The notes under the pieces are model-generated. The model saw nothing but the letters and a program-made list of their open reading frames with translations. It was not told the origin of the DNA and did not search any database. A DNA stretch of 32,000 nucleotides, taken from Bdellovibrionales bacterium (lineage in GTDB: Bacteria; Bdellovibrionota; Bdellovibrionia; Bdellovibrionales; UBA1609). The stretch is from the NCBI GenBank assembly GCA_963692945.1, contig OY843585.1, forward strand, positions 690,001 through 722,000. Reading direction: 5' to 3'. Shown in pieces: positions 1,388 through 32,000 of this stretch (within the stretch, counting starts at the first letter, position 1; the number at the start of each line of letters is the position of its first letter). A program made the position numbers and the translations under genes.

Positions 1388-3637
1388 ATGTTAACTCCTC
1401 AAGAAATGTCTCAATTTGTAGAAAGAACCTATCTACAAATGCAAGAAAAACTGAATGTATTTCGTTCTAAAAATTCTCGTCCGCTGACTTTGTCAGAAAA
1501 AGTGCTTTTTTCTCATCTTTCAAAGCCAGATCAATTTAAGGGCGATGAAAATTTTTTATCTTTAGCTCCTGACCGTGTCATTATGCAAGATGCGACGGCT
1601 CAAATGGCTATGCTGCAATTTATGTTAACAGGTAAAAATTCTGTTGCTGTTCCTGCAACCATTCACTGCGATCATTTAATTGTGGCTAAAGAAGGGATTC
1701 AAAAAGATATGAAATCAGCTCTTGTGTCTAATCGGGAAGTGTTTGATTTTTTATCTTCCGTAGCCAGTCGTTACAATATTGGATTTTGGAAACCCGGTTC
1801 AGGAATCATTCATCAAGTTGTTTTAGAAAACTATGCTTTTCCAGGAGGACTCATTATTGGAACTGATTCTCATACTCCCAATGCAGGTGGATTAGGAGTC
1901 TTAGCCATTGGTGTTGGTGGAGCGGATGCTACGGATGTTATGGCTGGATTTCCTTGGGAAGTGAAAAGACCAAAAATCACAGGTGTTCATCTCACAGGAA
2001 CTCTTTCTGGTTGGACATCTCCTAAAGATATTATTTTAAAACTTCTTGGTATTTTAACAGTGAAGGGTGGAACAAATAAAATCATTGAATATTTTGGAGA
2101 AGGTTGTAAAAACATAAGTTGCACAGGGAAAGCAACTATAACCAATATGGGTGCTGAGTTAGGAGCAACCTGTTCGGTTTTTCCTTACGATCAAAAAATG
2201 AAAGATTATCTTGTAGCCACTTATAGAAAAAAGGTTGTTGAATGGGCAGATAAGAATAGAGATATTCTAACTTCTGATGAAGAGGTTTTGAAAAACCCTT
2301 CTTCTTATTATGACGAAGTGATTGAAATCAATCTTTCAGAATTAGAACCTCATGTCTCTGGTCCTCATTCTCCTGATTTAGTTCGTCCTCTAAAAGATTT
2401 TAAAAAAGAAATAAAAGAAAAAAAATGGTCACCCATTTTATCTGCAGCATTGATTGGTTCTTGCACCAACTCTTCTTATGAAGATATTGGTCGTGCTTCT
2501 CATGTAGCACAACAAGCAGCTGATGTAGGTTTTAAAATGCCTCAACCTTTTTTGGTCACACCTGGTTCAGAGTTGGTTAAAAAAACCATTGAACGAGACA
2601 ATTATATGGAGATCTTTAATAAAGTGGGTGCTGTTGTTTTAGCCAATGCTTGTGGTCCCTGTATTGGTCAATGGCAAAGGCCTGTAAAAAAAGGAGAAAC
2701 CAATACAATCATCAATAGTTTTAATCGTAACTTTAGAGGGAGAAACGATGCCAACCCTAACACTCTTTCTTTCATTGCGAGTCCTGAAATTGTTATGGCT
2801 ATGGGTTTGTCTGGACGGTTAGATTTTAATCCTGAAACGGATGAATTAGAAAGAGATGGAAAAAAAATTAAATTTAAAAGTCCTGTTGCTAAAGAACTTC
2901 CTGACAAACCTTTTGTTGTTGATCTAGAGGGTTATGTAAAACCTCAAGGTTCAAAAGTAGATGTTCAAATTAAAGATAACTCTGAAAGATTAGAAGTATT
3001 AAAACCCTTTTCTCCTTGGGATGGAAAGGATTTTGGAGACCTTGTTGTTCTTTGCAAAGCAAGAGGGAAATGCACTACGGATCATATTTCTCCGGCTGGT
3101 TTTTGGTTAAAATATCGCGGTCATTTAAATAAAATTTCAGATAATCTTTTGATAGGAGCAACTAATGATTACACGGAAGAGACAGGAAGAGGGTTGAATG
3201 TATTAACAAATGAAAGGAATGGTTTTGCTACTATTGCTAGGGATTACAAGTCAAAAAAACAAGGTTGGATTATTGTTGGTGAAGAAAACTATGGAGAAGG
3301 AAGCAGTCGTGAACATGCTGCTATGACTCCTCGTTATCTTGGTGCTAAGGCTGTTATTGTAAAAAGTTTTGCTCGCATTCATGAAACAAATTTAAAGAAA
3401 CAAGGAGTTTTACCTCTCACTTTTATTGATAAATCAGATTACAATAAAATCAAACAGGAGGATCGTCTTTTTATAAAAAATCTTTCTCAATTAAAACTTT
3501 CAAGCATGCATTCTGTTGTTATTAAACATAAGGACGGAGGAGAAGAGCAAATCTCAGTGACCCATTCTCTCAACGAAGAACAAATCAAATGGTTTAAAGC
3601 GGGTTCATCTTTAAATACTTTGAGGAATAAGAAATAG
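1388..3637 (+). CDS. acnA: Aconitate hydratase, about 750 aa, mitochondrial-like type
   Basis: 749-aa ORF with an ATG start. It carries aconitase signatures: IHCDHL, GTDSHTPNAGGLG, Fe-S ligand motifs GSCTNSSYEDI and NACGPCIGQW, and the swivel-domain motif NYGEGSSREHAA. Confidence 0.95.
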   Translation: MLTPQEMSQFVERTYLQMQEKLNVFRSKNSRPLTLSEKVLFSHLSKPDQFKGDENFLSLAPDRVIMQDATAQMAMLQFMLTGKNSVAVPATIHCDHLIVAKEGIQKDMKSALVSNREVFDFLSSVASRYNIGFWKPGSGIIHQVVLENYAFPGGLIIGTDSHTPNAGGLGVLAIGVGGADATDVMAGFPWEVKRPKITGVHLTGTLSGWTSPKDIILKLLGILTVKGGTNKIIEYFGEGCKNISCTGKATITNMGAELGATCSVFPYDQKMKDYLVATYRKKVVEWADKNRDILTSDEEVLKNPSSYYDEVIEINLSELEPHVSGPHSPDLVRPLKDFKKEIKEKKWSPILSAALIGSCTNSSYEDIGRASHVAQQAADVGFKMPQPFLVTPGSELVKKTIERDNYMEIFNKVGAVVLANACGPCIGQWQRPVKKGETNTIINSFNRNFRGRNDANPNTLSFIASPEIVMAMGLSGRLDFNPETDELERDGKKIKFKSPVAKELPDKPFVVDLEGYVKPQGSKVDVQIKDNSERLEVLKPFSPWDGKDFGDLVVLCKARGKCTTDHISPAGFWLKYRGHLNKISDNLLIGATNDYTEETGRGLNVLTNERNGFATIARDYKSKKQGWIIVGEENYGEGSSREHAAMTPRYLGAKAVIVKSFARIHETNLKKQGVLPLTFIDKSDYNKIKQEDRLFIKNLSQLKLSSMHSVVIKHKDGGEEQISVTHSLNEEQIKWFKAGSSLNTLRNKK

Positions 3638-3829
3638 TAGAAAAGAATCAAAAATTCCAAAATATAAAGACAAAAGCGGGTTCATCTTTAAATACTTTGA
3701 GGAATAAGAAATAGTAGAAAAGAATCAAAAATTCCAAAATATAAAGACAAAAGCGGGTTCATCTTTAAATACTTTGAGGAATAAGAAATAGTAGAAAAGA
3801 ATCAAAAATTCCAAAATATAAAGACAAAA
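3599..3829. repeat. Three perfect tandem copies of a 77-bp unit; copy 1 contains the last 12 codons and the TAG stop of acn
   Basis: The unit gcgggttcatctttaaatactttgaggaataagaaatagtagaaaagaatcaaaaattccaaaatataaagacaaaa starts at 3599, 3676 and 3753. I see no mismatches. Confidence 0.95.
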
Positions 3830-7086: not shown

Positions 7087-8022
7087 GTGGAGTCTTCTAA
7101 AAAATCAAAAATTCAAAAGAGTCGTAGGCTTGTTGTAAAAAAGAAGAAGCCTATTGTGTCACCAGAAGTTGTATCTTCTACTCCTATAGGAGGAGGGAGC
7201 ACTCTCCATAATTATTTACATCAGATTTCAAAGACATCTATCTTGACTAGAGAAGAGGAGTATAAATTAACAGTTCGTTATTATGAAACAAAAGATATAG
7301 AAATTGCTCAAAAGTTGATTCAATCCAATCTAAGATTTGTTGTGAAAATTGCTTTAGAGTACAGTCGGTTTAGTTCTAAAATTATGGATATCATTCAAGA
7401 GGGTAATATTGGATTGATCAAGGCCGTTCAAGAATTTAATCCTTATAAAGGGGCAAGGCTTATAACTTATGCTGTATGGTGGATTAGAGGTTACATTCAA
7501 GAGTATTTGATTAAGCATCACTCTGTTGTTCGTCTGGGAACAAATAAAAAACAGAGGAAATTGTTTTACCGATTGCAAAAAGAAAAACAAGCTCTTGAGC
7601 AATTTGATAGGTTAAAGCTTCTACCTGCTATTGCTGAATCCACTCAATCAACAGAAAAGGAAGTGGAAGAAATGGAGCAATTTATTCTTAAGAAAGATGT
7701 GAGTTTAGATCAGCCTATAAAAAAGGATGTAACAACTACTTTTTTAGATTTGCATCCTGATGATTCCCCTTCTATAGAAGATCAACTTTCTCTTGAAGAG
7801 CAGGGATTGCTTTTAAGAAAACATTTGAAACAGATGGAAAAAGAACTTAATGAAAAGGAAAAAGTAATTATAAAAAATCGGTTATTAAAAGATCCTCCAG
7901 ATACCTTACAAGCCATTGCTAATAAATTTGGAGTGACGAGAGAATCTATCAGACAGGTAGAGGAGCGACTTTTTAGAAAATTAAAAGAAAAATTAATCCC
8001 TATTCTTAAAAAATCTTATTAA
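7087..8022 (+). CDS. rpoH: RNA polymerase sigma-32 (heat-shock sigma factor)
   Basis: Sigma-70 family regions 2-4 are present: NLRFVVKIALEY, DIIQEGNIGLIKAVQEFNP, ITYAVWWIRGYIQEY. It has an RpoH-box-like KKQRKLFYRLQK and a C-terminal HTH (LQAIANKFGVTRESIRQVE). It uses a GTG start and has a lysine-rich N-terminal extension. Confidence 0.85.
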   Translation: MESSKKSKIQKSRRLVVKKKKPIVSPEVVSSTPIGGGSTLHNYLHQISKTSILTREEEYKLTVRYYETKDIEIAQKLIQSNLRFVVKIALEYSRFSSKIMDIIQEGNIGLIKAVQEFNPYKGARLITYAVWWIRGYIQEYLIKHHSVVRLGTNKKQRKLFYRLQKEKQALEQFDRLKLLPAIAESTQSTEKEVEEMEQFILKKDVSLDQPIKKDVTTTFLDLHPDDSPSIEDQLSLEEQGLLLRKHLKQMEKELNEKEKVIIKNRLLKDPPDTLQAIANKFGVTRESIRQVEERLFRKLKEKLIPILKKSY

Positions 8023-8918
8023 GCAGCCTTAAGTTCTTCTTCTTTGACTTGATTGACTAATTTTGTTTTCAGTCTTTCAATGGCTTGAGTACGCAATTGG
8101 GACACTCGGCTTTCTGTTATTTTTAGAATTTGTCCTATTTTTCTGAAATTAAATTCTTCGTAATAGTAAAGAGAAAGCACTATCCTTTGTCTTTCAGGTA
8201 GTTCTTCTATAGCATTTTTGATGATTTTTTGAATGGATTTTCTATTTACAATATTAAAAGAAGAGTTTTTATTTTCTAATATTGTTAAAACAGAAACCTT
8301 ATCTGTTTTACTAAAAAATAGAGATTCATCAATAGAGACCATATTTACTTTGTTCGTTTCCTTTAGAATTTCATGATACTTTTCTATAGTTATATTCATG
8401 GCTTTTGCTATTTCTTTAGATTTAGGGATTCTAGAGTATTTTTGTTCTAATTCTTGTGTGACTTTATTGATTTTTTTAGTTTTATCCCTGATGGAACGAG
8501 GTATCCAGTCCTGAGATCTCAAAGCGTCTAAAATAGCTCCACGAACACGAAATTCAGCATAAGTTTTAAATTTATTATTACGGGTAGAGTCAAATTTCTT
8601 AATAGCATCCATTAAGCCAATGACACCATTAGAAATAAGATCTTCATGGTCAATATGGGCTGGTAATCTTGATGAAATTTTTCTAGCCACACAGCGAATC
8701 ATTGGCATATATTCTACGATGATTTTATTTCTTTGAGAAATAGATATTTTTTTATTTTTACCAAAAGATTCTTCAGGAGTCTTTAGATCTTTTTTATTTT
8801 GAAAAGGGATAATCTTATTATCTGTAGAACATGATATTTTTTTATCCATCTTCTTTAGTTTTGGAGACTTTACCTTTTTTCTTTTATCTTGAAAATTAAT
8901 AATTTTATTTGTTTTCAT
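8019..8918 (-). CDS. fliA: Flagellar sigma-28 factor (FliA/WhiG family)
   Basis: DLISNGVIGLMDAIKKFD...FKTYAEFRVRGAILDALRSQDWIPRSIR is the FliA-type region 2-3. The C-terminal region 4 is LPERQRIVLSLYYYEEFNFRKIGQILKITESRVSQL. The ATG is preceded by AAGGAG. The gene lies directly downstream of the fliL-like gene on the same strand. Confidence 0.85.
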   Translation of the reverse strand: MKTNKIINFQDKRKKVKSPKLKKMDKKISCSTDNKIIPFQNKKDLKTPEESFGKNKKISISQRNKIIVEYMPMIRCVARKISSRLPAHIDHEDLISNGVIGLMDAIKKFDSTRNNKFKTYAEFRVRGAILDALRSQDWIPRSIRDKTKKINKVTQELEQKYSRIPKSKEIAKAMNITIEKYHEILKETNKVNMVSIDESLFFSKTDKVSVLTILENKNSSFNIVNRKSIQKIIKNAIEELPERQRIVLSLYYYEEFNFRKIGQILKITESRVSQLRTQAIERLKTKLVNQVKEEELKAA

Positions 8919-10307: not shown

Positions 10308-12302
10308 ATGGTAACTTCTCAAGATTTAAATAAGATTTATAATGAACTGAATCCTCAGCAAAAAGAAGCTGTTCAAAGTTTTGAAGGGCCTTTGTTGGTT
10401 TTAGCTGGGGCTGGTTCAGGAAAGACAAGAGTTCTGGTTTATCGTATTGTTGCCCTTGTGTTAGAGAAAAAAGCAAGTATAGAAAATATTCTAGCTGTTA
10501 CATTTACAAACAAAGCAGCTCGTGAAATGAAAGAAAGAACGGAAAATCTATTGAATCAATATGGTTATCCCATGAACTATATGCCTTGGATAGGGACTTT
10601 CCATTCTATATGTGCTCAAATTCTTAGACAGAATATGCATCTTATCCCTGATAGAAAGACAGTGACTATTTATGACCAAACAGATCAGCTTCGTCTTGTT
10701 AAAAAGGTTATCAAAGATTTAAATATTGATGATAAAATGTATCCACCTAAGAACTTTCGTAGTCAAATCAATCTTTGTAAAAGAATGGCAGTGAGCCCCC
10801 ATGAATTGCATCGTATTCCTTATTTATCTAATGATATTCGTTTTGAAAAAATATATAAGGAGTATGAGAAAGCTTTAAAAGCAGCTTCTGCTTTTGATTT
10901 TGAGAGTCTTCTTTTAGAGACTTATCGTCTTTTGGTTAAATATCCTGATTTTTTAGAGAAATTACAAAATCAATTTAAATACATTTGTGTGGATGAATAC
11001 CAAGATACAAACCATATTCAATATCTTCTTATTCAAAAACTTTCAGATAAATATAAAAATATTTGTGTTGTAGGGGATGAAGATCAATCCATTTATGGTT
11101 GGCGAGGTGCTGATATGACAAATATTATGGATTTTGAGAAGGATTTTAAAAATTGTAAAACTTTTTTTCTAGAAGAAAATTATCGTTCCACAAACAATAT
11201 TGTTCAAAGTGCTAGTGCTGTTATTTCTCATAACAAGATTCGTAAAGGAAAAAATTTATTTACAAATAAAAATCTGGGAGAAAAAATTTTGATAAAAGAA
11301 GTTTTGAATGAATATGAAGAGGGGCGATTTATTTCTGAAACCATTCGTTCTCTTTGCTCTCAAGGAGATGGAAGTTGGGATGATTTTGCTATTTTATATA
11401 GGACGAACGCACAATCTCGTTCATTAGAAGATCACTTTCGGGTTTTGAGGATACCTTATAAAATTGTAGGTGGTGTTCGTTTTTATGAAAGAGCAGAAGT
11501 AAAAGATGCCTTATCCTATTTAAAACTTATTTTAAATACTAAAGATGATGTATCTTTTTTAAGAGTAATCAATAGTCCGAAAAGAGGTTTTGGAAAGATG
11601 AGCCTTTCTAAATTGCAAGAAGCGGCTTATCAAAAACAAATCAGTCTCTATGAATCTTTAAAACTATTTGTAGATAACCAAATTTTAAAGGGAAAACTTC
11701 AAATAGAATCTAAAAAATTTATTCATTTTATAGAACAAATGAGAAGTCAGAAAGGCACTTTGCCTCTTTATGAATTGTATATTTTGGTTTTAGAAAAAAG
11801 CACTTACTTAGAGATTCTTAAAAATGAGAATAGTATTGAATCTCAAAGTCGTATTGAAAATCTTCAAGAGTTAGGAAATGTTATTGAGCAAAAAGAAAAA
11901 AAAGTAAATGGTATTTTAAATTTAGAATCTTTCTTAGAGGAAATGAGTCTACTTACAGAGGATGATAAAACAAAAAATGTTAAACAGGCTGTGACTTTAA
12001 TGACTCTTCACAATTCTAAGGGGTTAGAATTTAACACGGTTTTTATTTCAGGTATGGAGGAAGGTTTATTTCCTTCTTTTCAAAGTATGGAAGATAATAA
12101 TATAGAGGAAGAGCGGAGGCTTGCTTATGTAGGTATAACAAGAGCTAAAGAAAGATTAACTTTGTCTTTTGCTCGTAGAAGGAGAGTGTGGGGTAAGGAT
12201 CAATCCAATTCACCTAGCTGTTTTTTAGGAGAGATACCAGAGGAGTTGGTTCGTTATGAGTCTTTTATCAGGGATAGAAAGTTTATAAATGATGATTTTT
12301 AA
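10308..12302 (+). CDS. uvrD: ATP-dependent DNA helicase, UvrD/PcrA/Rep family (SF1)
   Basis: Motifs present: Walker A AGAGSGKT, TFTNKAAREM, CVDEYQDTN, VGDEDQSIYGWRGA, NYRS, TLHNSKGLEFNTVFI and RRLAYVGITRAKERL. Confidence 0.92.
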   Translation: MVTSQDLNKIYNELNPQQKEAVQSFEGPLLVLAGAGSGKTRVLVYRIVALVLEKKASIENILAVTFTNKAAREMKERTENLLNQYGYPMNYMPWIGTFHSICAQILRQNMHLIPDRKTVTIYDQTDQLRLVKKVIKDLNIDDKMYPPKNFRSQINLCKRMAVSPHELHRIPYLSNDIRFEKIYKEYEKALKAASAFDFESLLLETYRLLVKYPDFLEKLQNQFKYICVDEYQDTNHIQYLLIQKLSDKYKNICVVGDEDQSIYGWRGADMTNIMDFEKDFKNCKTFFLEENYRSTNNIVQSASAVISHNKIRKGKNLFTNKNLGEKILIKEVLNEYEEGRFISETIRSLCSQGDGSWDDFAILYRTNAQSRSLEDHFRVLRIPYKIVGGVRFYERAEVKDALSYLKLILNTKDDVSFLRVINSPKRGFGKMSLSKLQEAAYQKQISLYESLKLFVDNQILKGKLQIESKKFIHFIEQMRSQKGTLPLYELYILVLEKSTYLEILKNENSIESQSRIENLQELGNVIEQKEKKVNGILNLESFLEEMSLLTEDDKTKNVKQAVTLMTLHNSKGLEFNTVFISGMEEGLFPSFQSMEDNNIEEERRLAYVGITRAKERLTLSFARRRRVWGKDQSNSPSCFLGEIPEELVRYESFIRDRKFINDDF

Positions 12303-14458: not shown

Positions 14459-15559
14459 ATGAAAAACTTAGTGATGAGTTTATGTGTGATCTTAGTAGGT
14501 CTATTGTCTGTTTCTGTTTATGGAACAGGAATACGAAAAATATACTTACCTCAGACAAATCTTATTGTTAAGCCTTCTTCAATTCAGGAAGATAAGTTCA
14601 CTCTTAGTGGGGGTATTTTACCAAACCCTTATGACCCTGTAGTATTTAGTTATAATTTACAAGCTTTTCACAGAAACGCAAAAGTCAAAACCGTTAAACA
14701 TATTCTTACTGATATGTTGAGGACAGATACCGTTTTTACTTTATTTCAAACTCGTCATTTTGATGATTCCATGGCTTCTTTAGAATCTAGTGGAGAGGGA
14801 AAAGGAGAATCTTTAGTTATTCCTTATTCTCTAGGTAACTCAATAGATGAGATTAGGGCTTCCGTAGAAAAACAAAATTTTAGTCATGATATGAGATTTC
14901 TTATTTTCACTCACTTTCTTTACGATCAAAAGATTTCTGATGAAGATGTCTTGAAGCTTTTTGATTCTATAAATCTTCCAAAGGATTTTATATTTACAGG
15001 TAAATCTTTAAATATTTTAGAAAATCATTCAGAAAATTTTCTTATAGATTTTTATTTTAAAAATCAATCTGGTTCTTTAAATAAGGAAGAGCAGAAAAAT
15101 TTAAAAATAAACTTAGACATTGTTAGACGTTTTTTGATGGATAAAAAAATGATGGATAAATATTTTTTAACAACACCGTCTCATGAAATATCTGCTAGTT
15201 TTAGAGTGGAATTGATAGAGCAGATGATACAGCAAGGAAAACTAAACTTTAAAGTGAAAGATGATATAGGAAACACTTTTTTACATGTTTTAGGATCTAA
15301 TAAACATTTAAAAAAAGAGAATTGGATAAATATTATAACTCATTTGGCTGAAGATGCCAGTGTAGATTTTGATATGAAAAATGAAGAAGGTTTTACTTTT
15401 TTAACAGTTCTCACAAGTTCTGGTTTCAAGGAGCCTTTAGAGTATCTTGTGAATCTTAGGGGGGGGGGTAGATATTTTTACCAAAGATATCTACAATCGT
15501 TCTCTTTTGCAGATAGCAGCAGAAAGTTTAAAATACAATATAGCTTCTTATCTCTATGA
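14459..15559 (+). CDS. Secreted ankyrin-repeat protein, 5' ORF of a gene interrupted at a G10 tract
   Basis: Signal peptide MKNLVMSLCVILVGLLSVSVYG. ANK-like repeats lie near the C-terminus (GNTFLHVLGSNKH..., EGFTFLTVLTSSGFKEPLEYLVNL). After the G10 tract the frame runs 30 more non-ANK codons to a stop. Confidence 0.7.
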   Translation: MKNLVMSLCVILVGLLSVSVYGTGIRKIYLPQTNLIVKPSSIQEDKFTLSGGILPNPYDPVVFSYNLQAFHRNAKVKTVKHILTDMLRTDTVFTLFQTRHFDDSMASLESSGEGKGESLVIPYSLGNSIDEIRASVEKQNFSHDMRFLIFTHFLYDQKISDEDVLKLFDSINLPKDFIFTGKSLNILENHSENFLIDFYFKNQSGSLNKEEQKNLKINLDIVRRFLMDKKMMDKYFLTTPSHEISASFRVELIEQMIQQGKLNFKVKDDIGNTFLHVLGSNKHLKKENWINIITHLAEDASVDFDMKNEEGFTFLTVLTSSGFKEPLEYLVNLRGGGRYFYQRYLQSFSFADSSRKFKIQYSFLSL

Positions 15560-16481
15560 AAAGGCAGGAGATCAGATCAATGAATTGAGTTATTTAAATG
15601 GTTATGTCACCAGTACATTTCAACCTGTTGTTTTAGAACCTGTTTCTTATTTTGGTTTGAGCTTTTTAACATCTCCTGTTTTAAAAACTATGAAATATAA
15701 ATATGGGAATAATCAACATCTTCTCAATGAAATAAATTCAAATTTTGTTAATTCTATTGGTAATTTGGCTTTATCTTTTACTGCCTATGAGGATAATAGA
15801 GTTGATTCTCTTCGGGAGATTTTTTTACGTCAAACCATTTTAAGTCATTTTTTATTGGCTTTGAGAGAGGGTGATACAGATTCCTTGAAGAACATTATAT
15901 CAAAGACACCAGAAATTGTAGATACTGTCATTTCTAGAGATTTAATTGAACCTAATAGCAGTTCAAAGGTTCGGGTTTATTTAACAGATATGCTTATAGA
16001 GTCCATTCGTTACAATCAACCAGGTAGTGTGAAGTTTATTTTGGAACATATGAAAGGCACAAGCTTGAACATAGGGGATATAATGAATCCTTTAACATCA
16101 GCTATTATGACTTCTTTTCTTATTGAGTACAATAGCGAGAAAGAAAGAGAAAAATCTTTAGAAATTATTAACATGCTTATAGATCAAAAGAGTAAAGAGA
16201 TAGATCTTAGAACCGATTCCATTTTAAATTTAAAACCTATAGATTTAGCTTCTATAGCAGGACTTGTTGATGTTGTAAAAAAACTTCACGAAGAACATAA
16301 TATCCCTCTTCCAATATATGAAAATGGAATTTTAGGAACAGGTGTTGATCATGTTGATCTGGCTTATAGCCAAGGGTTTAAGGTTTTAGCCCAATATTAC
16401 GAGCAAAATATTGAAGGTCAAGAAGAAGCAGACACTAGTGATGAATTGGCTTTAAAGAAGTGTCGTGAAACTTTTCATTGA
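15453..16481 (+). CDS. Ankyrin-repeat protein, 3' ORF (continuation of 14459.. in the +1 frame)
   Basis: The frame is open from 15453; the track starts it at a TTG at 15507. ANK-like repeats run throughout (NRSLLQIAAESLKYNIASYLYEKAGD; LKPIDLASIAGLVDVVKKLHEEHN). No convincing independent start or RBS. Confidence 0.65.
   Translation: MLGGGVDIFTKDIYNRSLLQIAAESLKYNIASYLYEKAGDQINELSYLNGYVTSTFQPVVLEPVSYFGLSFLTSPVLKTMKYKYGNNQHLLNEINSNFVNSIGNLALSFTAYEDNRVDSLREIFLRQTILSHFLLALREGDTDSLKNIISKTPEIVDTVISRDLIEPNSSSKVRVYLTDMLIESIRYNQPGSVKFILEHMKGTSLNIGDIMNPLTSAIMTSFLIEYNSEKEREKSLEIINMLIDQKSKEIDLRTDSILNLKPIDLASIAGLVDVVKKLHEEHNIPLPIYENGILGTGVDHVDLAYSQGFKVLAQYYEQNIEGQEEADTSDELALKKCRETFH
15459..15468. repeat. 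G10 homopolymer at the junction of the two ankyrin ORFs (candidate slipped-strand switch or homopolymer sequencing error)
   Basis: Ten consecutive G at 15459..15468 in an AT-rich genome. The downstream ORF's frame is open from 15453. Removing one G joins ...LEYLVNLRGG to VDIFTKDIYNRSLLQIAAESLKYNIASYLYEKAGD, which is a continuous ANK repeat. Confidence 0.9.
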
Positions 16482-23763: not shown

Positions 23764-26700
23764 ATGGATTTCAGAAGTAAATTGTTAGATATATTGTTTA
23801 AAATTTTTATATGGATCATTGTGGCTTTGTCAGCTGGAGTTTTACTCTCTTGTGTTTCTACAAAAAAGAAACTAAATCCTAAGATTATAAAAGTAGAAAA
23901 AAGTCATTTTTTTAAATCTAAATCTGTGGGAAAAGATAAATTAAAAAGAAATACTAAAAAATATGAAAGAAAAGAATCAAAAGCCACAGGAGTCATTCTT
24001 AAATTTTATAATTGGCCTAGTGTTAAAGAAACCCAGTTAATAATAAAGCATTTAAACAAAAAAGGTTTAAAAAAACTAAAGACGGTTGAGAGTTTTAAAA
24101 TCTGGTTGTTTGAATGGCCTGAAGTTGAATTAAAATCGGCTCGGATGGCTTGGAGATCTTGTAAAAATATATCAAAACTATCTGCTCGTTTGAATTACTG
24201 TGAACCAAATTATTTGCTGACTCCAGATTCAAAACTTATGGATACGGAAGCCACTTCTACAGATATTGAATGTAAAACTTGCAATGAAAATAAGATTCAG
24301 CCTATAAAAAATGTGAATACCTGTGAGCTTGTAGCTTCAAAGCTCAAACTAAAAAAAGGTCAACTTTCTGATTACTGGGCACAAGAGTTAATAGGTTCTG
24401 ATCTTTTAAGAAAAGAATTTGAAAAAGTTCCAATTCCTAAAAAAGAAAATTTTATTACAGTTATAGAGTTTGGTGATTCAGAAGATCGTCATATGAATCT
24501 TGTTAAAAACCTTATTTCAGATGAAGGGTCTCATGCTATTTTACCAAGATTAGAAGGTAAATCTTCTAAATGGAATAAGATAAAAAAGACAGATACAAAC
24601 ACAAGTCTAGTTACTCAGTTCATAAATGGAGGTGCGACCTCCTATTTAATAATAGCAGAAAAATTAAAATATAAACCTCCGTCTTTTATCAATAGCAGTA
24701 TAGGTTGGGGTCAGTCAAAAACGGTCTATGAGGCATTTAAATCTCTTTCTTCACATTCTATTCTAGTAGCTTCTGCTGGTAATTATTTTCCTGAAAAGAT
24801 AGACAAAATGCAAGAGAAAGCCTCAAAAGATTTTGATGCTATTTTGGTTGGAAGTTTTAGTCCTAAAGGTTTTGTGAGTGAGTTTTCAAAGGAAGGAGAG
24901 GAAGTTCATATATTAGCTCCTTCCGATCTCTGGCTCACTTCTATGTACAAGAACAAGCCTTATAAAAATTTTGGAGGGACAAGTGGTGCTGCTCCTTTAG
25001 TTACAGGAAGCCTTGCTGGTTTTGAATGGCTTTCTGGTTATCATCCTACTGCAAAAGAAGCAAAAATAATTTTAAAAGAGACAGCTTTACCTACATTGCA
25101 TTCTCGTCAAAATAAAGTGGGTTTATTAAATTCTTATAGGATTGGAATGGTTGCCAAAAGATTAAAAAAGAAATGTGAAGATAAAGAACTCACTTGCTTT
25201 GCGAAAGAGATTAGAGATAAAAAGAATTATCAATTTCAGGTGGATGAAAATAAAATAAAAAAAGATATAGATGAAGTTTTTTCTGCTTGTAGTTTTGGAA
25301 ATAAAAAATCTCAAGCAGTAGAAAACACAACTTGCGAACAAAAGAAAAAAGTTTTTACAAAACTTAGAAAAACAATACTACTTAAGCCCAATCATCGTGA
25401 ACTCTGGGAGTCTTTAAGTTGTATTTATAGGCAGGAAGGATTTTCAGAAAATGCAAAAGCTTTAGATAATATAGCTCTTGCTTTTGATAATAGCAAAGTA
25501 GTGGTTGAAAAATTAATGAAACAGATTCTGAGTTCTGATGAGGGTTTAGAGTATGTGATTAGAAGACTAAATAAAGAAATAGGGTTTGAAATTGCTAAAA
25601 AAATGTTTACAAATAAAAATCTAATTATTAGAAGAGGGGTTATATACGGTTTATCTCAAAATGATGAAGGGCTACCTTTTTTAGAAAAATTTGCAGAAGA
25701 TAAATCTTCAGATGTGAGAAAAACTGTTGCACTGAGTTTATCTGAAATGGGTTACAAGGGGCTGCCTCTTTTAGAAAAATTGGCAGAAGATGAAAATTCA
25801 GATGTGAGAAAAACTGTTATATGGAGTTTATCTAAAATAGGTAACAAGGGGCTGCCACTTTTAGAAAAATTGGCAGAAGATGAAAATTCAGATGTGAGAG
25901 AATCTGTTGCACGGAGTTTATCTAAAATAGGTAACAAGGGGCTGCCTCTTTTAGAAAAGTTGGCAAAAGATGAAAATTCAAATATAAGAAAAACTGTTGC
26001 AGTGAGTTTATATGAAATAGGTGACAAGGGGCTACCTCTTTTAGAAAAGTTAGCAAAAGATAGATCTTCATTTGTGAGACGATCTGCTGTATGGGGTTTA
26101 TCTGAAATAGGTGACAAGGGACTGCCACTTTTAGAAAAATTGGCAAAAGATAAAAATTCAAATGTGAGACGATCTGCTACACTGAGTTTATCTGAAATGG
26201 GTGCCGAGGGACTGCCACTTTTAGAAAAATTGGCAAAAGATAAAAATTCAAATGTGAGACGATCTGCTACACTGAGTTTATATAAAATAGGTGCCGAGGG
26301 ACTGCCTCTTTTAGAAAAGTTGGCAAAAGATAAAAATTCAAATGTGAGACGATCTGCTACACTGAGTTTATCTGAAATGGGTGACAAGGGGCTGTCTCTT
26401 TTAGAAAAATTGGCAAAAGATAAAAGTTCATATGTGAGACAATCTGTTGCACGGAGTTTATTTGGAATGGGTAACAAGGGGCTGTCTCTTTTAGAAAAAT
26501 TGGCAAAAAATAAAAGTTCAGATGTGAGACGATCTGTTGAACTGAGTTTATCTGAAATGGGTGACAAGGGGTTGCCTCTTTTAGAAAAACTGGCAACAAG
26601 TGATGATTCAAATATAAGAAAATCTGCTATACTGAGTTTATATAAAATAGGTGACAAGGGGCTGCCTCTTTTAGAAAAATTGGCAAAAAATAAAAGTTCA

Positions 26701-26973
26701 GATGTGAGACGATCTGTTGTAGTATTGGGTTTATCTAAAATGGATGGCAAGATAGGGCTACCTCTTTTAGAAAAGTTGGCAGCAAGTGATGATCCAAATA
26801 TAAGAGAATCTATTATATGGAGTTTATCTAAACTGGGGGACAAGAAGTGGGTTCCTCTTTATAGAAAATTGGCAACAAGTGATGATCCAAATGTAAGAGA
26901 ACTTGCTGAAAAGATTTTAAGTGACCGACAAAAGGGATTCTTACCACCACTCCAAGAGTCTTTTTATCCTTGA
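23764..26973 (+). CDS. Membrane-anchored subtilase-like (S8) protein fused to about 14 HEAT-like (PBS-lyase-type) repeats
   Basis: 1069 aa. It has an N-terminal TM helix (IFIWIIVALSAGVLLSCV) and an I9-propeptide-like segment (..LNYCEPNYLLTP). S8 landmarks are ITVIEFGDS (Asp-box position), EGSHAI (His box), ILVASAGN (oxyanion Asn) and GGTSGAAPLVTG (Ser box). These are followed by 30-aa repeats GLPLLEKLAKDKNSNVRRSATLSLSEMGDK. Confidence 0.8.
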   Translation: MDFRSKLLDILFKIFIWIIVALSAGVLLSCVSTKKKLNPKIIKVEKSHFFKSKSVGKDKLKRNTKKYERKESKATGVILKFYNWPSVKETQLIIKHLNKKGLKKLKTVESFKIWLFEWPEVELKSARMAWRSCKNISKLSARLNYCEPNYLLTPDSKLMDTEATSTDIECKTCNENKIQPIKNVNTCELVASKLKLKKGQLSDYWAQELIGSDLLRKEFEKVPIPKKENFITVIEFGDSEDRHMNLVKNLISDEGSHAILPRLEGKSSKWNKIKKTDTNTSLVTQFINGGATSYLIIAEKLKYKPPSFINSSIGWGQSKTVYEAFKSLSSHSILVASAGNYFPEKIDKMQEKASKDFDAILVGSFSPKGFVSEFSKEGEEVHILAPSDLWLTSMYKNKPYKNFGGTSGAAPLVTGSLAGFEWLSGYHPTAKEAKIILKETALPTLHSRQNKVGLLNSYRIGMVAKRLKKKCEDKELTCFAKEIRDKKNYQFQVDENKIKKDIDEVFSACSFGNKKSQAVENTTCEQKKKVFTKLRKTILLKPNHRELWESLSCIYRQEGFSENAKALDNIALAFDNSKVVVEKLMKQILSSDEGLEYVIRRLNKEIGFEIAKKMFTNKNLIIRRGVIYGLSQNDEGLPFLEKFAEDKSSDVRKTVALSLSEMGYKGLPLLEKLAEDENSDVRKTVIWSLSKIGNKGLPLLEKLAEDENSDVRESVARSLSKIGNKGLPLLEKLAKDENSNIRKTVAVSLYEIGDKGLPLLEKLAKDRSSFVRRSAVWGLSEIGDKGLPLLEKLAKDKNSNVRRSATLSLSEMGAEGLPLLEKLAKDKNSNVRRSATLSLYKIGAEGLPLLEKLAKDKNSNVRRSATLSLSEMGDKGLSLLEKLAKDKSSYVRQSVARSLFGMGNKGLSLLEKLAKNKSSDVRRSVELSLSEMGDKGLPLLEKLATSDDSNIRKSAILSLYKIGDKGLPLLEKLAKNKSSDVRRSVVVLGLSKMDGKIGLPLLEKLAASDDPNIRESIIWSLSKLGDKKWVPLYRKLATSDDPNVRELAEKILSDRQKGFLPPLQESFYP
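25669..26925 (+). repeat. In-frame 90-bp (30-aa) tandem repeat array, about 14 units, encoding the HEAT-like repeats
   Basis: The period was measured directly; for example, actgccactt recurs at 26121 and 26211. Central units (about 26120-26400) are nearly identical at the DNA level. A degenerate extra unit precedes the array at about 25582. Confidence 0.92.
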
Positions 26974-27152: not shown

Positions 27153-28100
27153 CTAGTTATAGGAGTCATAGGAGTCGTCATAGGAGTTATAGGAGTCATA
27201 GGAGGGTGTACCATCTAAATTGATATCAAAATAATAAGTTTTTCCATCTTTATTTGTGTAAGGGATGCAAGATTTTTTATTGGAATGTATGTCGATTCCG
27301 TTACCCCACCAGCGATGATTTTTTAAACTTCTCACAGTGTTATGTTCTTTGAGAGGGTCTTTTACTTTTACAACTTGTAAGAGACCTGAAAGTTCATTGT
27401 CGCCAATAATATTCCGGTTGAAATATCTATATTTTAGATAAGGATCATCTATCAAAACTATCTTCTTGGATTTAGAAGAACTAGAATCTTCATTATCATT
27501 GTCAATGACTTTTACATTTAATTGTTCCGCTGTGTGATAAAGAGATTTTGTTTTTTCATAGGCCATTATTTTTTCATAAGCAAGATGCATTGGTAGATGG
27601 TTAATATAGGAGTTGTAATAGTTACTAGGAATAAGGAAATGAGAATGCCCCATATCTGAAAGGTTAATATAGTCTGCATAGTTCTTTTTTAAGGCTGCTT
27701 CAATATGTAAAATGGTATTCTTAATGAAATTTTCTGTGACCGTTATACCTTTAGAGATTGTTTTACCAGGGGGGATTTTAAAGGCACCTCTCTCACCATA
27801 AGTAGGATCATAATACATATGATTAATAAGTCGTTTAGGAGTTTCATACAAACGATAAAATCTTGTTTTTATCTCTAGAAGACTGGAGTACCATTTAAAA
27901 TCCTTAAAGTTAACAGACAAATCTTTGGAAGATGATTTTGAGCAACGGATTTTAGCTATTTTTATAGCTTGATTTAAATAGTCTTCTTTAGATTGTTTAG
28001 TAGTTTGTGAAGATGAATTGCGTTTCTCTATTGAGTTTTGAGCCATACCTGACCAACTGAGGAAACAAAAACTTAAGATAAACACAAAATTTAGATACAT
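27153..28100 (-). CDS. Secreted hypothetical protein with a C-terminal (D/N)SY tripeptide-repeat tail
   Basis: The track ORF starts at a TTG (28139). The ATG at 28100 gives a clean signal peptide, MYLNFVFILSFCFLSWSGMA. The C-terminus SYDSYNSYDDSYDSYN is encoded by 9-bp repeats (ataggagtc) at 27156..27203. I recognise no family. Confidence 0.55.
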   Translation of the reverse strand: MYLNFVFILSFCFLSWSGMAQNSIEKRNSSSQTTKQSKEDYLNQAIKIAKIRCSKSSSKDLSVNFKDFKWYSSLLEIKTRFYRLYETPKRLINHMYYDPTYGERGAFKIPPGKTISKGITVTENFIKNTILHIEAALKKNYADYINLSDMGHSHFLIPSNYYNSYINHLPMHLAYEKIMAYEKTKSLYHTAEQLNVKVIDNDNEDSSSSKSKKIVLIDDPYLKYRYFNRNIIGDNELSGLLQVVKVKDPLKEHNTVRSLKNHRWWGNGIDIHSNKKSCIPYTNKDGKTYYFDINLDGTPSYDSYNSYDDSYDSYN

Positions 28101-28282
28101 CGTTAATAGTATCTTTTCAAAAAATAAGACTTTTCTCAAATTGTTTATTTCTAAAAGGTATTTTTTTAAAGATTATTAAAGAGAATAAGCCAATTGTGTT
28201 TCTTAAAATAAGTGCTTTTAATAATAGAGTTAAGCATAAGTAATTCGGATCCTGTTTTATGACAGAGTGTATTGTAAATAGA

Positions 28283-28507
28283 TCTATGGCTGGGGTTTTT
28301 TGTGTATTGTAAGTTATTCCTATTATTGTAAATCCCTATATACGAAAGAATCTATGGCTGGGGTTATTTGTGTATTGTAAGTTATTCCTATTATTGTAAA
28401 TCCATACATACGGAAGAATCTATGGCTGTGGTTATTTGTGTATTGTAAGTTATTCCTATTATTGTAAATCCATACATACGGAAGAATCTATGGCTGTGGT
28501 TTTTTTG
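28283..28507. repeat. 68-bp tandem array, 3.3 copies, in the divergent intergenic region upstream of bolA
   Basis: Units start at 28283, 28351, 28419 and 28487 (partial). The unit is tctatggctg(g/t)ggtt(a/t)tttgtgtattgtaagttattcctattattgtaaatcc(a/c)tacatacggaagaa, with a few substitutions between copies. Confidence 0.93.
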
Positions 28508-28563
28508 CAATTATTGGAGAGGGAATGATTTACCTCTAGGAAAAAAAAGTGTAGTCATAGATT

Positions 28564-28869
28564 ATGACAGTTCAAGAGATTTTAAAACAGAAACTGGAAA
28601 AGCATTTTCAACCTTTAGTATTAAAGGTTATTAATGAAAGCTCTAACCATAATGTTCCTGATGGCAGTGAAAGTCATTTCAGGGTTATTCTAGTATCTGA
28701 GAAGTTTAAAGGTGTCTCTGTTGTGAAAAGACATCAAATGATCTATAAGGTTGTGTCTGAGCAGTTAAAAGATAAAATCCATGCTTTTTCTCAACACACT
28801 CTGACTCCTGAGGAATGGGTTCAAAAAGGAGGAGAACTCCCTTTATCCCCTCCTTGTGCCAAAAAATAG
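28564..28869 (+). CDS. bolA: BolA-family protein
   Basis: 101 aa. The pattern ...LKVINESSNHNVPDGSESHFRVILVSEKFKGVSVVKRHQMIY....IHAFSQHTLTPEEW matches the BolA fold signature. Confidence 0.88.
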   Translation: MTVQEILKQKLEKHFQPLVLKVINESSNHNVPDGSESHFRVILVSEKFKGVSVVKRHQMIYKVVSEQLKDKIHAFSQHTLTPEEWVQKGGELPLSPPCAKK

Positions 28870-29093
28870 CTTCAATATTTTTTTGCAAATCCTTTTTTTA
28901 AGCTCAAAATCTGTGTTTCTTGTCTTCAATATTTTTTTGCAAATCCTTTTTTTAAGCTCAAAATCTGTGTTTCTTGTCTTCAATATTTTTTTGTAAATCC
29001 TTTTTTTAAGCTCAAAATCTGTGTTTCTTGTCTTCAATATTTTTTTGTAAATCCTTTTTTTAAGCTCAAAATCTGCGTTTCTTGTCTTCAATC
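28870..29093. repeat. 54-bp tandem array, 4 copies plus a partial copy, starting at the first base after the bolA stop codon
   Basis: Units start at 28870, 28924, 28978 and 29032, with a partial unit at 29086. The unit is cttcaatatttttttgcaaatcctttttttaagctcaaaatctgtgtttcttgt. Copies 1 and 2 are identical; copy 3 carries one substitution and copy 4 two. Confidence 0.95.
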
Positions 29094-29430
29094 TAGAAAC
29101 AAAATGTCACATTGCACACTAAATTAGGGGTAAGTAGCCTAAGATTCTAAGACTTATATCCTATAGTTGTGAGATATAAAGATAGGTGTTCTTAACTTAT
29201 GTAGTAAGTGATTTTTTTTTATTTTAAATAAGAAAAACACATGAAAAGCCCTTGAGTTTGCTAGTTTTTTTAGAAATAAGACAAAGTCATCTAAGGCAAA
29301 TCTATGGTTCAATGATTAGAAAAAAAGAAGATATTTTAGAAAAATAAAATAAAAAAATAATTTTTAGTTTGATAAACAAAATCATTTTTGCATATTCTTA
29401 TATATATACCAAAAAACAATGGAGGTAATA

Positions 29431-29946
29431 ATGGCTAAGAAAAAAAGAAGAACAGTTAAGAAAAGGGTAGTTAGAAAGAAAAAAGTGACTAAGAAGAAAA
29501 AGGTAGTTAGAAAGAAAAAGGTTGTTAGAAAGAAGAAGGTAGTTAGAAAGAAAAAAGCGACTAAGAAGAAAAAGGTTGTTAGAAAGAAAAAGGTAGTTAG
29601 AAAGAAAAAAACGACTAAGAAGAAAAAGGTTGTTAAGAAGAAAAAGGTAGTTAGAAAGAAAAAAGTTGTTAAGAAGAAAAAAGGGAAATCTAAAAGAAAG
29701 CCCAATTCGGCTTTTATGAAAAGTTTAAAGGTTTCAGCGGCTCTTCAAGCAATTATTAATGTTTCTTCTGTATCTCGTCCTCAGGCTACGAAAAAAATCT
29801 GGATTTACATAAAAAAACACAACTTACAAGATCCAAAGAATCGCCGTATGATTTTTATTGATGAAAAACTGAAACTTGTTTTTCCTGGTAAAAAGGTGAT
29901 CAGTATGTTTGACGTGGCTAAGATGATGGGTAAACACCTCAGCTAG
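29431..29946 (+). CDS. Lysine-rich hexapeptide-repeat protein with C-terminal SWIB/MDM2 domain
   Basis: The ATG at 29431 is preceded by GGAGG (29421-29425); the track start at 29419 overlaps that SD. Residues 3-90 are VV(R/K)KKK-type repeats. The C-terminal roughly 80 aa (LKVSAALQAIINVSSVSRPQATKKIWIYIKKHNLQDPKNRRMIFIDEKLKLVF...MFDVAKMMGKHL) are a clear SWIB domain. Confidence 0.85.
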   Translation: MAKKKRRTVKKRVVRKKKVTKKKKVVRKKKVVRKKKVVRKKKATKKKKVVRKKKVVRKKKTTKKKKVVKKKKVVRKKKVVKKKKGKSKRKPNSAFMKSLKVSAALQAIINVSSVSRPQATKKIWIYIKKHNLQDPKNRRMIFIDEKLKLVFPGKKVISMFDVAKMMGKHLS

Positions 29947-29977
29947 TTGATAGAGTTTTTCAAAAAGAAAAAAAGAG

Positions 29978-30007
29978 AGAGGCTGGGAAACACAGCCTCT
30001 TTTTTTT
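29978..30007 (+). terminator. Rho-independent terminator of the SWIB gene
   Basis: An 8-bp perfect stem, agaggctg (29978-85) with cagcctct (29993-30000), a 7-nt loop, then T7 (30001-07). It lies 32 nt after the stop codon. Confidence 0.8.
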
Positions 30008-30126
30008 ATTTGTTGGGGTTCTTTTAAATATGAGACTACAAGTTTTTTATTTGATGGGGTTTTTTAAATACTAGATTACAAGTTTTTTATTTGATGGGGT
30101 TTTTTAAATACTAGATTACAAGTTTT
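30002..30126. repeat. 40-bp tandem array, about 3 copies, beginning in the terminator T-tract
   Basis: Copies at 30043..30082 and 30083..30122 are identical (ttttttatttgatggggttttttaaatactagattacaag). Copy 1 (30002..30042) is diverged and 1 nt longer. A related fragment, gaggttttttaaatact, lies at about 30153. Confidence 0.9.
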
Positions 30127-30226
30127 AAGGACGTTAATGGTTTGCATTTGTAGAGGTTTTTTAAATACTTGCTAGGAGTGTGGATTTTGACTAACATCCA
30201 GTTCAGGTTTAAATAAAAAAAATTAT

Positions 30227-31000
30227 ATGGCTCAAATTTTATCTCAACAAGAAATACCTTTGATGCGTTCGGCTTGTAAATTAGCGGCTCAGGTTTTGGT
30301 TTTTATTGAACCTCATATTCAACCTGGAATCACTACAGAAAAATTAAACCAGCTTTGTCATGATTTCATTTTATCCCATTCTGCTATACCAGCTCCTTTA
30401 AATTACAACGGCTTTCCTAAATCTATATGCACTTCTGTGAACACTTGCATTTGCCATGGAGTTCCTGATTCTACCGTTTTAAAGGAAGGAGATATTATCA
30501 ATGTAGATGTGACTTGTATAAAGGATGGATTTTTTGGAGATACCTCTAAAACTTTTTTTGTAGGGGAAGTTACAGAAAAGGCCAAAATTCTGACTGATTG
30601 TGCCTTTCAAGCTATGAATAAGGGAATTGAGGCTATAGAGCCTTATGGAACCACAGGTGACATTGGCTTTGCCATAAATAAATATGTGACTAGAAAGGGT
30701 TTTTTTCCAGTTTTAGAGATAGGTGGGCATGGTATAGGTAAAAAATTTCATGATGAGCCTTTTGTTCCCTCTGTGGGGAAAAGGGGAAGGGGGGTTGTGT
30801 TGCAACCTTGGAGTTGTATAACGGTAGAACCCATGGTCAATGAAATATCTCCAGACATAAAAGAATTTCCCATAAATAATTCTAGTGTGAAATACTACCA
30901 CACAATAGATGCAGGTCTATCGGCTCAGTTTGAACATACCATTTTAATTACAGATGGCAGTGATTCTTCCAATTATGAAATTCTAACTCTTCCTGAGTAA
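30227..31000 (+). CDS. map: Methionine aminopeptidase, type I
   Basis: The pattern APLNYNGFPKSICTSVN..ICHGVP....L.EGDIINVDV......GFFGDTSKTF.VG, ...GHGIG..FHEEP and the FEHTILIT metal-ligand pattern are present. Confidence 0.95.
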   Translation: MAQILSQQEIPLMRSACKLAAQVLVFIEPHIQPGITTEKLNQLCHDFILSHSAIPAPLNYNGFPKSICTSVNTCICHGVPDSTVLKEGDIINVDVTCIKDGFFGDTSKTFFVGEVTEKAKILTDCAFQAMNKGIEAIEPYGTTGDIGFAINKYVTRKGFFPVLEIGGHGIGKKFHDEPFVPSVGKRGRGVVLQPWSCITVEPMVNEISPDIKEFPINNSSVKYYHTIDAGLSAQFEHTILITDGSDSSNYEILTLPE

Positions 31001-31203
31001 AAAATGGCAGTGATTCTTCCAATTATGAAATTCTAACTCTTCCTGAATAAAAGATGGCAGTGATTCTTCCTTATCTTAAATTCTAACTCTTCCTGAATAA
31101 AAGATGGCAGTGATTCTTCCAATTATGAAATTCTAACTCTTCCTGAGTAAAAAATGGCAGTGATTCTTCCGATTATGAAATTCTAACTCTTCCTGAATAA
31201 AAG
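30954..31203. repeat. 50-bp tandem array, 5 copies; copy 1 is the last 15 codons and stop of map
   Basis: Units start at 30954, 31004, 31054, 31104 and 31154. The unit is atggcagtgattcttccaattatgaaattctaactcttcctga(g/a)taaaa(a/g). Copy 3 has the variant ccttatctta and copy 5 has a single A-to-G change. Confidence 0.95.
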
Positions 31204-31286
31204 AGAGATTAAAAAAGGAAGCACAAAGTTATTTCTTAAATTCTTCTATTAACTTTCTACATAAAAGAGTTTTCTAGCCATATTAT

Positions 31287-31332
31287 ATCTTCCTTATCTT
31301 AAATTCTAACTCTTCCTGAGTAAAAGAGAGAT
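31287..31332. repeat. Displaced partial copy of the map 3'-end repeat, including its right flank
   Basis: tcttccttatcttaaattctaactcttcctgagtaaaagagagat matches the copy-3 variant plus the agagagat that follows the array at 31201. An unrelated segment separates it from the array. Confidence 0.85.
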
Positions 31333-31465
31333 GTTCTATAACTTAGAAGCAGGGACTTTTATCCTATTATCAACTCTTTTAAATTTATTTCCGTTTCTTT
31401 TGAAAAAAAATAAACTCATAGAGCTTCTCTTGCTTTTTCTTTTTTTCAAAGATATATAAAATTTT

Positions 31466-32000
31466 ATGTCAATCTCTCCATCTAAAAATCTGGATTACAA
31501 AGTTTGTTCTTCTGCAATGAAGGATAAAAAAGTCTTTCAAGAAATGGCTGTCTTTGGGAGAGAAGAAATCCTAATTGCTGAAAGAGAAATGCCTGGTTTG
31601 ATGGCTTTAAGAAAAGAGTATGGAGCTTCAAAGCCTCTTAAGGGAGCTCGTATTACAGGTTGTCTTCATATGACAATACAAACGGCTGTTCTTATAGAAA
31701 CTTTAAAACATTTGGGAGCAGAAATCAGATGGTCTTCTTGTAACATTTACTCTACACAAGATCATGCGGCTGTAGCCATGGCTCAATCAGGTGTTCCTGT
31801 TTTTGCTTGGAAGGGAGAGACAGAAGAAGAGTATCAATGGTGTATTGAGCAAACGGTTTATGGTTGGGGTGAACAAGGTTTTAATCTTATTATAGATGAC
31901 GGAGGAGATTTAACTCACTATATGCACGAAGAAAAACAGTCTTCTTTGATGAAAAAAGTTTTAGGTCTTTCGGAAGAGACCACAACAGGTATTCAAAATT
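31466..32000 (+). CDS. ahcY: Adenosylhomocysteinase, N-terminal part (partial, runs off the window end)
   Basis: Not in the ORF track. The ATG at 31466 is open to the window end: [13 protein letters not shown]...[62 protein letters not shown]...[20 protein letters not shown]...DDGGDLT. This is the canonical SAH hydrolase N-terminus. Confidence 0.93.

Follow-up and report, generated by a model that had tools for sequence, protein, structure and literature searches.

Long-period tandem arrays around the bolA, SWIB, map and ahcY genes of a Bdellovibrionales bacterium: probable young minisatellites made in place

A 32-kb stretch of the genome of a Bdellovibrionales bacterium (contig OY843585.1, positions 690,001 to 722,000; hereafter the window, to whose positions the coordinates refer) carries five long-period, non-coding tandem arrays, four of which stand in the spacers around bolA, a SWIB-domain gene, map and ahcY, and the fifth at the end of acn. 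These arrays are probably young, lineage-specific minisatellites made in place, by random duplication that was filtered by purifying selection. They are young and of local origin, they are absent from sister genomes, they lie in non-conserved DNA, and their placement agrees with a model in which duplications fall at random and only the tolerated ones persist.

In the mechanism that we infer, the first duplication, of a stretch of 40-110 bp, would come about when replication slips or switches template between short direct repeats, after which the array would grow, shrink and homogenise through slippage or unequal exchange among its copies. The duplications would be blind to gene ends, and the survivors would be those that leave open reading frames (ORFs) and 5' control regions intact. 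In a compact genome, this would be tolerated where a spacer is free of constraint, or across a stop codon, where the first copy keeps the whole gene, and such a filter would leave arrays lying "behind" genes. The arrays themselves are most likely neutral and without function, and we suppose a heritable, raised rate of duplication or retention in this genome and in one of the relatives described below (L162).

Detection and anatomy of the arrays

Arrays were called with Tandem Repeats Finder (TRF) on the window, whose G+C content is 32%. The five non-coding arrays have units of 77, 68, 54, 40 and 50 bp in 3.0-5.0 copies, with 91-100% matches and scores of 213-468; the top score in 100 dinucleotide-preserving shuffles of the window was 94, and arrays with a period of at least 30 bp appeared at a mean of 0.01 per shuffle. 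In all five, the copies are contiguous and head-to-tail, without spacers. TRF and in-register comparison of the copies bear out the initial annotation as to the positions and periods of the arrays, including a displaced copy of the 50-bp unit, and as to the copies being identical or nearly so; its gene names (bolA, SWIB, map, ahcY and acn) agree with Pfam, and the terminator that it placed after the SWIB gene was found.

The 77-bp array (3596-3829, + strand; 3.0 copies, 100% matches, score 468) consists of three perfect copies followed by AAA. It begins inside the aconitase gene acn (1388-3637, +; Pfam), of which it takes in the last 42 bp up to the final base of the stop codon (3637), and its unit comprises the final 13 codons of acn and the stop, followed by 35 bp of downstream sequence. 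The 68-bp array (28282-28505, unstranded; 3.3 copies, 96% matches, score 399) sits in the divergent 5'-5' spacer between the ORF at 27153-28139 (-) and bolA (28564-28869, +; Pfam PF01722, E=2e-26), where it occupies the non-conserved middle and leaves the conserved bolA-proximal block intact; its edge copies are more diverged than its central ones. The 54-bp array (28870-29092, +; 4.1 copies, 98% matches, score 425) is made of four copies and a 7-bp CTTCAAT, and its first base is the base after the bolA stop codon.

Downstream, the SWIB-domain gene (29419-29946, +; Pfam PF02201) is followed by an intrinsic terminator (29971-30007, +), which is conserved in one of the relatives described below (L162), with hairpins at the equivalent place in others. 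The 40-bp array (30002-30126, +; 3.1 copies, 94% matches, score 213) begins in the T-tail of this terminator, has a degenerate fourth copy at 30141-30169, and is placed between the terminator and the conserved promoter block TTTTGACTAACA of map. The latter gene (30227-31000, +), encoding a type I methionine aminopeptidase (Pfam PF00557, M24) with 82-89% amino acid identity to its orthologues, runs into the 50-bp array (30954-31202, +; 5.0 copies, 91% matches, score 428), the first of whose five copies is the final 47 bp of map, stop included. Copies 1 and 4 of this array carry the variant GAGTAAAAA, and copies 2, 3 and 5 carry GAATAAAAG, a pattern that suggests a 150-bp higher-order duplication of several units at once. 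Beyond it stand a more decayed relic of the unit (31253-31269) and the displaced copy (31288-31332), which is 87% identical and carries the right flank of the array, GAGAGAT. Array and relics together have displaced the conserved promoter/5' block of ahcY (CTTGCTTTTTCTTTTTTTCAAAGATATA..., 31430-31465, +), now about 426 bp from map; ahcY itself (AdoHcyase, Pfam; +) begins at 31466.

Compared in register, the edge copies of the arrays are the most diverged and the central copies identical, a print that would result from expansion and homogenisation by slippage or unequal exchange, with decay at the edges. At their ends the arrays have short, incomplete copies (AAA, CTTCAAT, GTTTT, or 20 bp), the first three of which fit microhomology junctions.

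Not every feature of the arrangement proved as regular as first described. The shared position at gene 3' ends holds for the 77-, 54-, 40- and 50-bp arrays and fails for the 68-bp array in its divergent spacer, and the arrays follow their genes in the strict sense at bolA and SWIB, whereas the 50- and 77-bp arrays start 47 and 42 bp inside map and acn. The arrays had also been called a hotspot: four of the five do lie in the four spacers of the cluster, and the first 28 kb of the window hold only one non-coding array. However, these four spacers make up about 34% of the window's non-coding DNA when the arrays are collapsed, so that arithmetic on the collapsed window gives P ~0.05 and the concentration is marginal.

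Relatives, local origin and age

Of the named relatives, those nearest to map and acn belong to metagenome-assembled genomes (MAGs) of Bdellovibrionales, Pseudobdellovibrionaceae and Oligoflexia. Syntenic loci were compared from L161 and L169 (one NCBI contig), L162 (HiFi, 2x coverage), L167 (HiFi), L168 (Flye, 90 kb), L001, L163 (Flye, 1.30 Mb) and L165 (hifiasm, 1.15 Mb), which represent several species at about 75-85% nucleotide identity (p-distances of 0.146-0.260). At the protein level, the 100% matches lie on a contig of 1,561,448 bp. Genome and metagenome scans yielded no locus of the same species, the next-best map match having 89% amino acid identity. As the relatives have contigs of 1.1-1.3 Mb and ankyrin-repeat genes, the clade looks host-associated.

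The relatives make the ancestral state visible. The C-termini of map (DGSxSSNYEILTLP) and acn (KAGSSLNTL...) are conserved in all of them, so that in the 50- and 77-bp arrays copy 1 represents the original end of the gene, from which the other copies were duplicated. At bolA, the initial portion of the 54-bp unit can be aligned with a variable stretch directly after the gene in L161, L167 and L001, and the window exceeds L161 in post-bolA length by 162 bp, exactly three 54-bp units. To judge from these alignments, the 50-, 77- and 54-bp units were demonstrably made from ancestral sequence at their own loci; for the 68- and 40-bp units, the evidence of locus-specificity is the absence of dispersed copies. 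The spacer from acn to the next gene measures 294 bp in the window vs 93-95 bp in relatives, and that between map and ahcY 465 bp vs 42-59 bp.

Non-coding long-period arrays were not found at the loci of L161/L169, L167, L168, L001 and L163, and since L167, L168 and L163 are long-read assemblies, their absence there does not come from collapse. Within an array the copies are 91-100% identical, while orthologous genes of these species differ by about 15%, which indicates that the arrays are young and post-date speciation.

One relative, however, shares the abundance of arrays. L162 has eight unrelated arrays in 20.8 kb. Stop codons are straddled by three of them: the 3' end of the TauE gene lies within a 107-bp unit (the TauE end of the window matching three places in L162), that of an amino-acid permease gene within a 62-bp unit, and a 51-bp unit takes in the last 7 bp of a Trypsin_2 gene, stop codon included. 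Another array begins 11 bp past the ahcY stop, the SWIB terminator is directly followed by a 70-bp array, the divergent spacer upstream of bolA holds two, and a 45-bp array is in frame within purK. None of the L162 arrays is homologous to a window array, even in the spacers that both genomes share. Run with the settings of PMC3287509, TRF covers 7.5% of the window, 9.0% of L162, 7.0% of L165 (whose repeats differ in kind, see below) and 0.6-2.9% of the other relatives. A rough neighbour-joining tree joins L161 and L167 as sisters, then the window, with L162 outside, and does not clearly unite the two array-rich genomes.

Because no array is common to both array-rich genomes, it would be a propensity that was inherited or acquired, and not the arrays themselves. 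We tentatively suggest, as a possibility that is less likely to be right than wrong, that some species (the window genome and L162) have a heritable propensity for tandem duplication of 40-110 bp that their near relatives L161, L167 and L168, at about 85% nucleotide identity, do not have. A lost or altered gene of repair, recombination or replication is an example of what could cause it; the window itself contains a gene for UvrD (10308-12302).

Placement and competing explanations

To judge how arrays should be distributed if duplication were random, we collapsed them to one unit and enumerated in the window all placements of the five observed unit lengths, a placement being taken as tolerated when it disrupts no ORF and no 5' end or 5' region. 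Stop-straddling is expected in 30% of tolerated placements, and it was observed in 5 of the 13 arrays of the window and L162 (38%; two of five and three of eight, respectively). If start-straddling were tolerated, it too would be expected in 30%, yet no such array was found among the 13 (0.7^13 = 0.01). Spacer alignments agree: every window array lies in the non-conserved part of its spacer, and the conserved block before the next gene is spared (CTTGCTTTTT...CAAAGATATA at ahcY, TTTTGACTAACA at map, and the promoter and ribosome-binding site at SWIB). The periods fit the same filter, being multiples of 3 in all coding arrays and, as the initial annotation had noted for most, not so in four of the five non-coding ones. 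Random placement under tolerance thus comes so close to what is seen that the 3'-end position does not require a mechanism linked to termination.

Some points weigh against random duplication filtered by selection. Genome-wide placement is extrapolated from the 32-kb window and the 20.8 kb of L162; three of the four fully intergenic arrays in co-directional spacers are nearer to the upstream stop than to the downstream start; and an array has arisen directly behind the SWIB terminator in two lineages, independently. In addition, L161 and L001 may be short-read assemblies, which under-represent repeats; neither has a trace of a second unit copy.

The initial annotation had named a tie to transcription termination or to replication-transcription conflict, along with relaxed repair, as possible sources. 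Under such a tie, duplications would be favoured at gene 3' ends, for example through template switching once a replication fork is halted by an RNA polymerase that is pausing or terminating. We regard this as improbable, though it is the strongest of the alternatives. The starts of seven of the 13 arrays fall within -93 to +11 relative to a stop codon, the 40-bp array starts at the terminator T-tail, L162 has its 70-bp array just past the same terminator, and all four 3'-end arrays of the window follow + strand genes, whose direction, given a GC skew that stays positive along the window, is that of the leading strand. The strand bias is nevertheless not significant (about 0.08), and the frequency of stop-straddling is already accounted for by random placement and selection. 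There is, besides, a single clear terminator in the 27-32 kb region, touched by one unit; the 68-bp array and two L162 arrays stand in a divergent 5'-5' spacer; and none of the five convergent spacers of the window carries an array.

That the arrays are functional, as binding sites or spacing modules that tune their neighbours in the manner of phase variation, or as modules of mRNA stability in 3' untranslated regions (UTRs), seems somewhat less probable still. The 68-bp array does occupy a region of divergent promoters, and the bolA, map and acn arrays start at or before the stop codon, upstream of any recognisable terminator, so that they are probably transcribed as 3' UTR. Against this stand the absence of the arrays from the matching loci of all close relatives, their confinement to exactly the least conserved DNA, and the fact that the units are mutually unrelated, as first noted (no pair above shuffled controls, all z<1.2). 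None of the units folds as single-stranded DNA into a hairpin better than shuffles do (minimum free energy 0 to -2.5 kcal/mol, z-scores +0.28 to +1.62), no family was matched in the Rfam scan, and the scan for tRNA and tmRNA gave no match. Promoter-like sites are not enriched in the arrays (11 found vs 18.5 expected), and the scan of the units for promoters and terminators returned nothing except the tail of the SWIB terminator within the 40-bp unit.

It is very unlikely that the arrays are artefacts, i.e., spurious repeat expansions in a long-read assembly. While the three perfect copies of the 77-bp array cannot be validated by sequence alone, and the L162 contig has 2x coverage and contains frameshifts, four of the five arrays have ordered, copy-specific variants and decayed flanking relics, every array is shorter than 250 bp and can be spanned by a single read, and comparable arrays occur in an independent assembly, that of L162.

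Least probable of all is an origin from a mobile or dispersed repeat family of the type of repetitive extragenic palindromic (REP) sequences, bacterial interspersed mosaic elements (BIMEs) or miniature inverted-repeat transposable elements (MITEs), for which L165 offers a precedent in the imperfect, REP-like palindrome CTACAACCACCGGTGAATGTAG, dispersed there (9 hits vs 0 expected) and forming short arrays directly after genes at three loci (2557-2679, 14492-14651 and 16265-16286), since this motif was not found in the window, whose units are confined to their own arrays, lack inverted repeats and in three cases are ancestral local sequence. Searches of the rest of the window and of 12 related loci found no dispersed unit copies other than the matches to be expected between the 50-bp unit and map 3' ends; the 54-bp unit has a 17-19 nt A/T-rich match to purK in several genomes. 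The initial annotation's preference for a local process over a mobile family is therefore upheld.

Other identities were tried and rejected. The units are not REP, BIME or MITE elements, having no dispersed family in the window or the related loci and no palindrome, hairpin or terminal inverted repeats; they are not CRISPR repeats, as the copies abut without unique spacers. Iterons or origin repeats have periods of about 17-22 bp vs 40-77 bp here, no rep or dnaA gene is nearby, and the cumulative GC skew runs monotonically through the window. Tandem terminators are likewise rejected, there being the single terminator at 29971-30007, of which only the T-tail is inside the 40-bp unit. Weak inverted matches of the 68- and 54-bp units to the SWIB coding sequence at 29791-29840 rest on the 9-mer seed TGTAAATCC and A/T runs, and were judged to be at chance level.

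Neighbouring observations and significance

Tandem repeats also occur within genes, and in all such coding arrays the period is divisible by 3: 9 bp in the ORF at 27153-28139, 18/54 bp in SWIB and 90 bp in a HEAT-repeat gene in the window, 45 bp in the purK gene of L162, and 87 bp in L169. The SWIB repeat (29458-29681) encodes a lysine-rich (KKKVVRKKK)n N-terminus in frame; it is kept in all relatives with periods of 15-66 bp, a variation which means that the coding repeat, too, expands and contracts in frame. The true start of this gene is probably the ATG at 29432, behind a conserved GGAGG. The 90-bp array (25669-26901, +; about 12 HEAT repeats) is in frame within the gene at 23764-26973, whose 1069 amino acids comprise a subtilase-like region and the HEAT repeats. 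This gene is absent from every syntenic relative, in which TauE directly precedes the next gene, and is a lineage-specific insertion adjoining the array cluster. The neighbouring ORF at 27153-28139 (-; 328 amino acids, no Pfam match) has a hydrophobic N-terminus and a C-terminal SYD/SYN repeat of 9 bp; it evolves fast, its nucleotide identity to L161 being 65%, and neither L163 nor L165 has it.

Between bolA and SWIB there are two conserved non-coding blocks, AAAATGTCACATTGCACACTAAAT and TTCTAAGACTTAYATCCTA (window 29100-29235; L161 9110-9225, L167 7310-7440, L001 9090-9215), identical or nearly so in four species whose genes differ by 15-21%. As the blocks gave no Rfam match and no supported consensus RNA structure, they may be a putative protein-binding regulatory site. 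The 54-bp array is traversed by two ORFs, 28843-29091 (-) and 28856-28996 (+), of 82 and 46 amino acids, which are open only because the period is a multiple of 3 and which are likely to be annotated, wrongly, as repeat proteins. Just upstream of acn, relatives carry a topoisomerase VI-like pair (Topo-VIb_trans/HATPase and TP6A/Spo11-Toprim; L168 6134-9192, L169 5855-9117), unusual for bacteria, and the A subunit in L169 has a recent in-frame 87-bp x2.1 duplication. Elsewhere in the window, two convergent genes of the sigma-70 family with a 4-bp overlap (7087-8022, +, and 8019-8918, -) adjoin fliL, in an otherwise reduced-looking genome.

In their sequence character, the window arrays appear to be a case of repeat proliferation of the Ehrlichia ruminantium type in an unrelated lineage, and not a new kind of element. 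The repeats of E. ruminantium are said, by Collins and co-workers in 2005, also to duplicate and truncate gene ends. The initial annotation had likened the window to that species and supposed an independent case if the lineages were unrelated, which they are, the nearest named relatives being MAGs of Bdellovibrionales and Pseudobdellovibrionaceae. Passages on E. ruminantium describe mostly non-coding tandem repeats that short reads under-assemble (PMC7343930) and attribute them to slipped-strand mispairing (PMC3287509). As in the window, the genome is small and AT-rich, with many unrelated, long-period, mostly non-coding repeats that lengthen intergenic regions (passages in PMC10710844, PMC3287509 and PMC7343930), identity within each array is high, and expansion and contraction are invoked there; with the parameters of PMC3287509, published TRF coverage is 0.38% in E. 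coli and 6.3% in the E. ruminantium genome, vs the 7.5% of this window. The differences are that E. ruminantium belongs to the Rickettsiales and the window genome is Bdellovibrionales-like; that its mean unit, as given in these passages, is 139 bp vs 40-77 bp, with fewer copies (3-5) in the window; that copy-number variability is described there as demonstrated, whereas the window arrays are read from one genome; and that the window clade offers close sister genomes with and without arrays.

Similarity extends to the variable-number tandem repeats (VNTRs) used for multiple-locus VNTR analysis (MLVA) in bacteria. Like the window arrays, VNTR-105 and VNTR-141 of Wolbachia wMel are presented as intergenic minisatellites of few, near-identical periods, for which slippage and concerted evolution are proposed, but their periods hold 23-bp hairpins thought to trigger slippage (passages in PMC3287509); the window units have no hairpin, and two of them include a stop codon and the last codons of a gene. 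REP, BIME and MITE elements resemble the arrays in being intergenic, often directly after genes and sometimes in short clusters, and differ from them in that the window units are single-locus, non-palindromic and locally derived.

Our literature searches found no report of such minisatellite proliferation in this phylum. The window adds an independent case in which minisatellites have proliferated in a reduced bacterial genome, with the ancestral state visible in sisters, which show directly that the arrays come from local sequence, that 3' ends with their stops are tolerated, and that conserved promoters are spared. In practice, the arrays are candidate VNTR markers for strain typing, and they call for care in annotation, where they give rise to pseudo-3'-ends and to spurious ORFs made of repeats (e.g., 28843-29091, -), and in short-read assembly, in which repeat units may be dropped. 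Close species rich and poor in arrays could help to find the driver of such repeats and, if the heritable propensity suggested above is true, the clade would be a natural contrast set for the still unexplained genetic cause of E. ruminantium-type proliferation.

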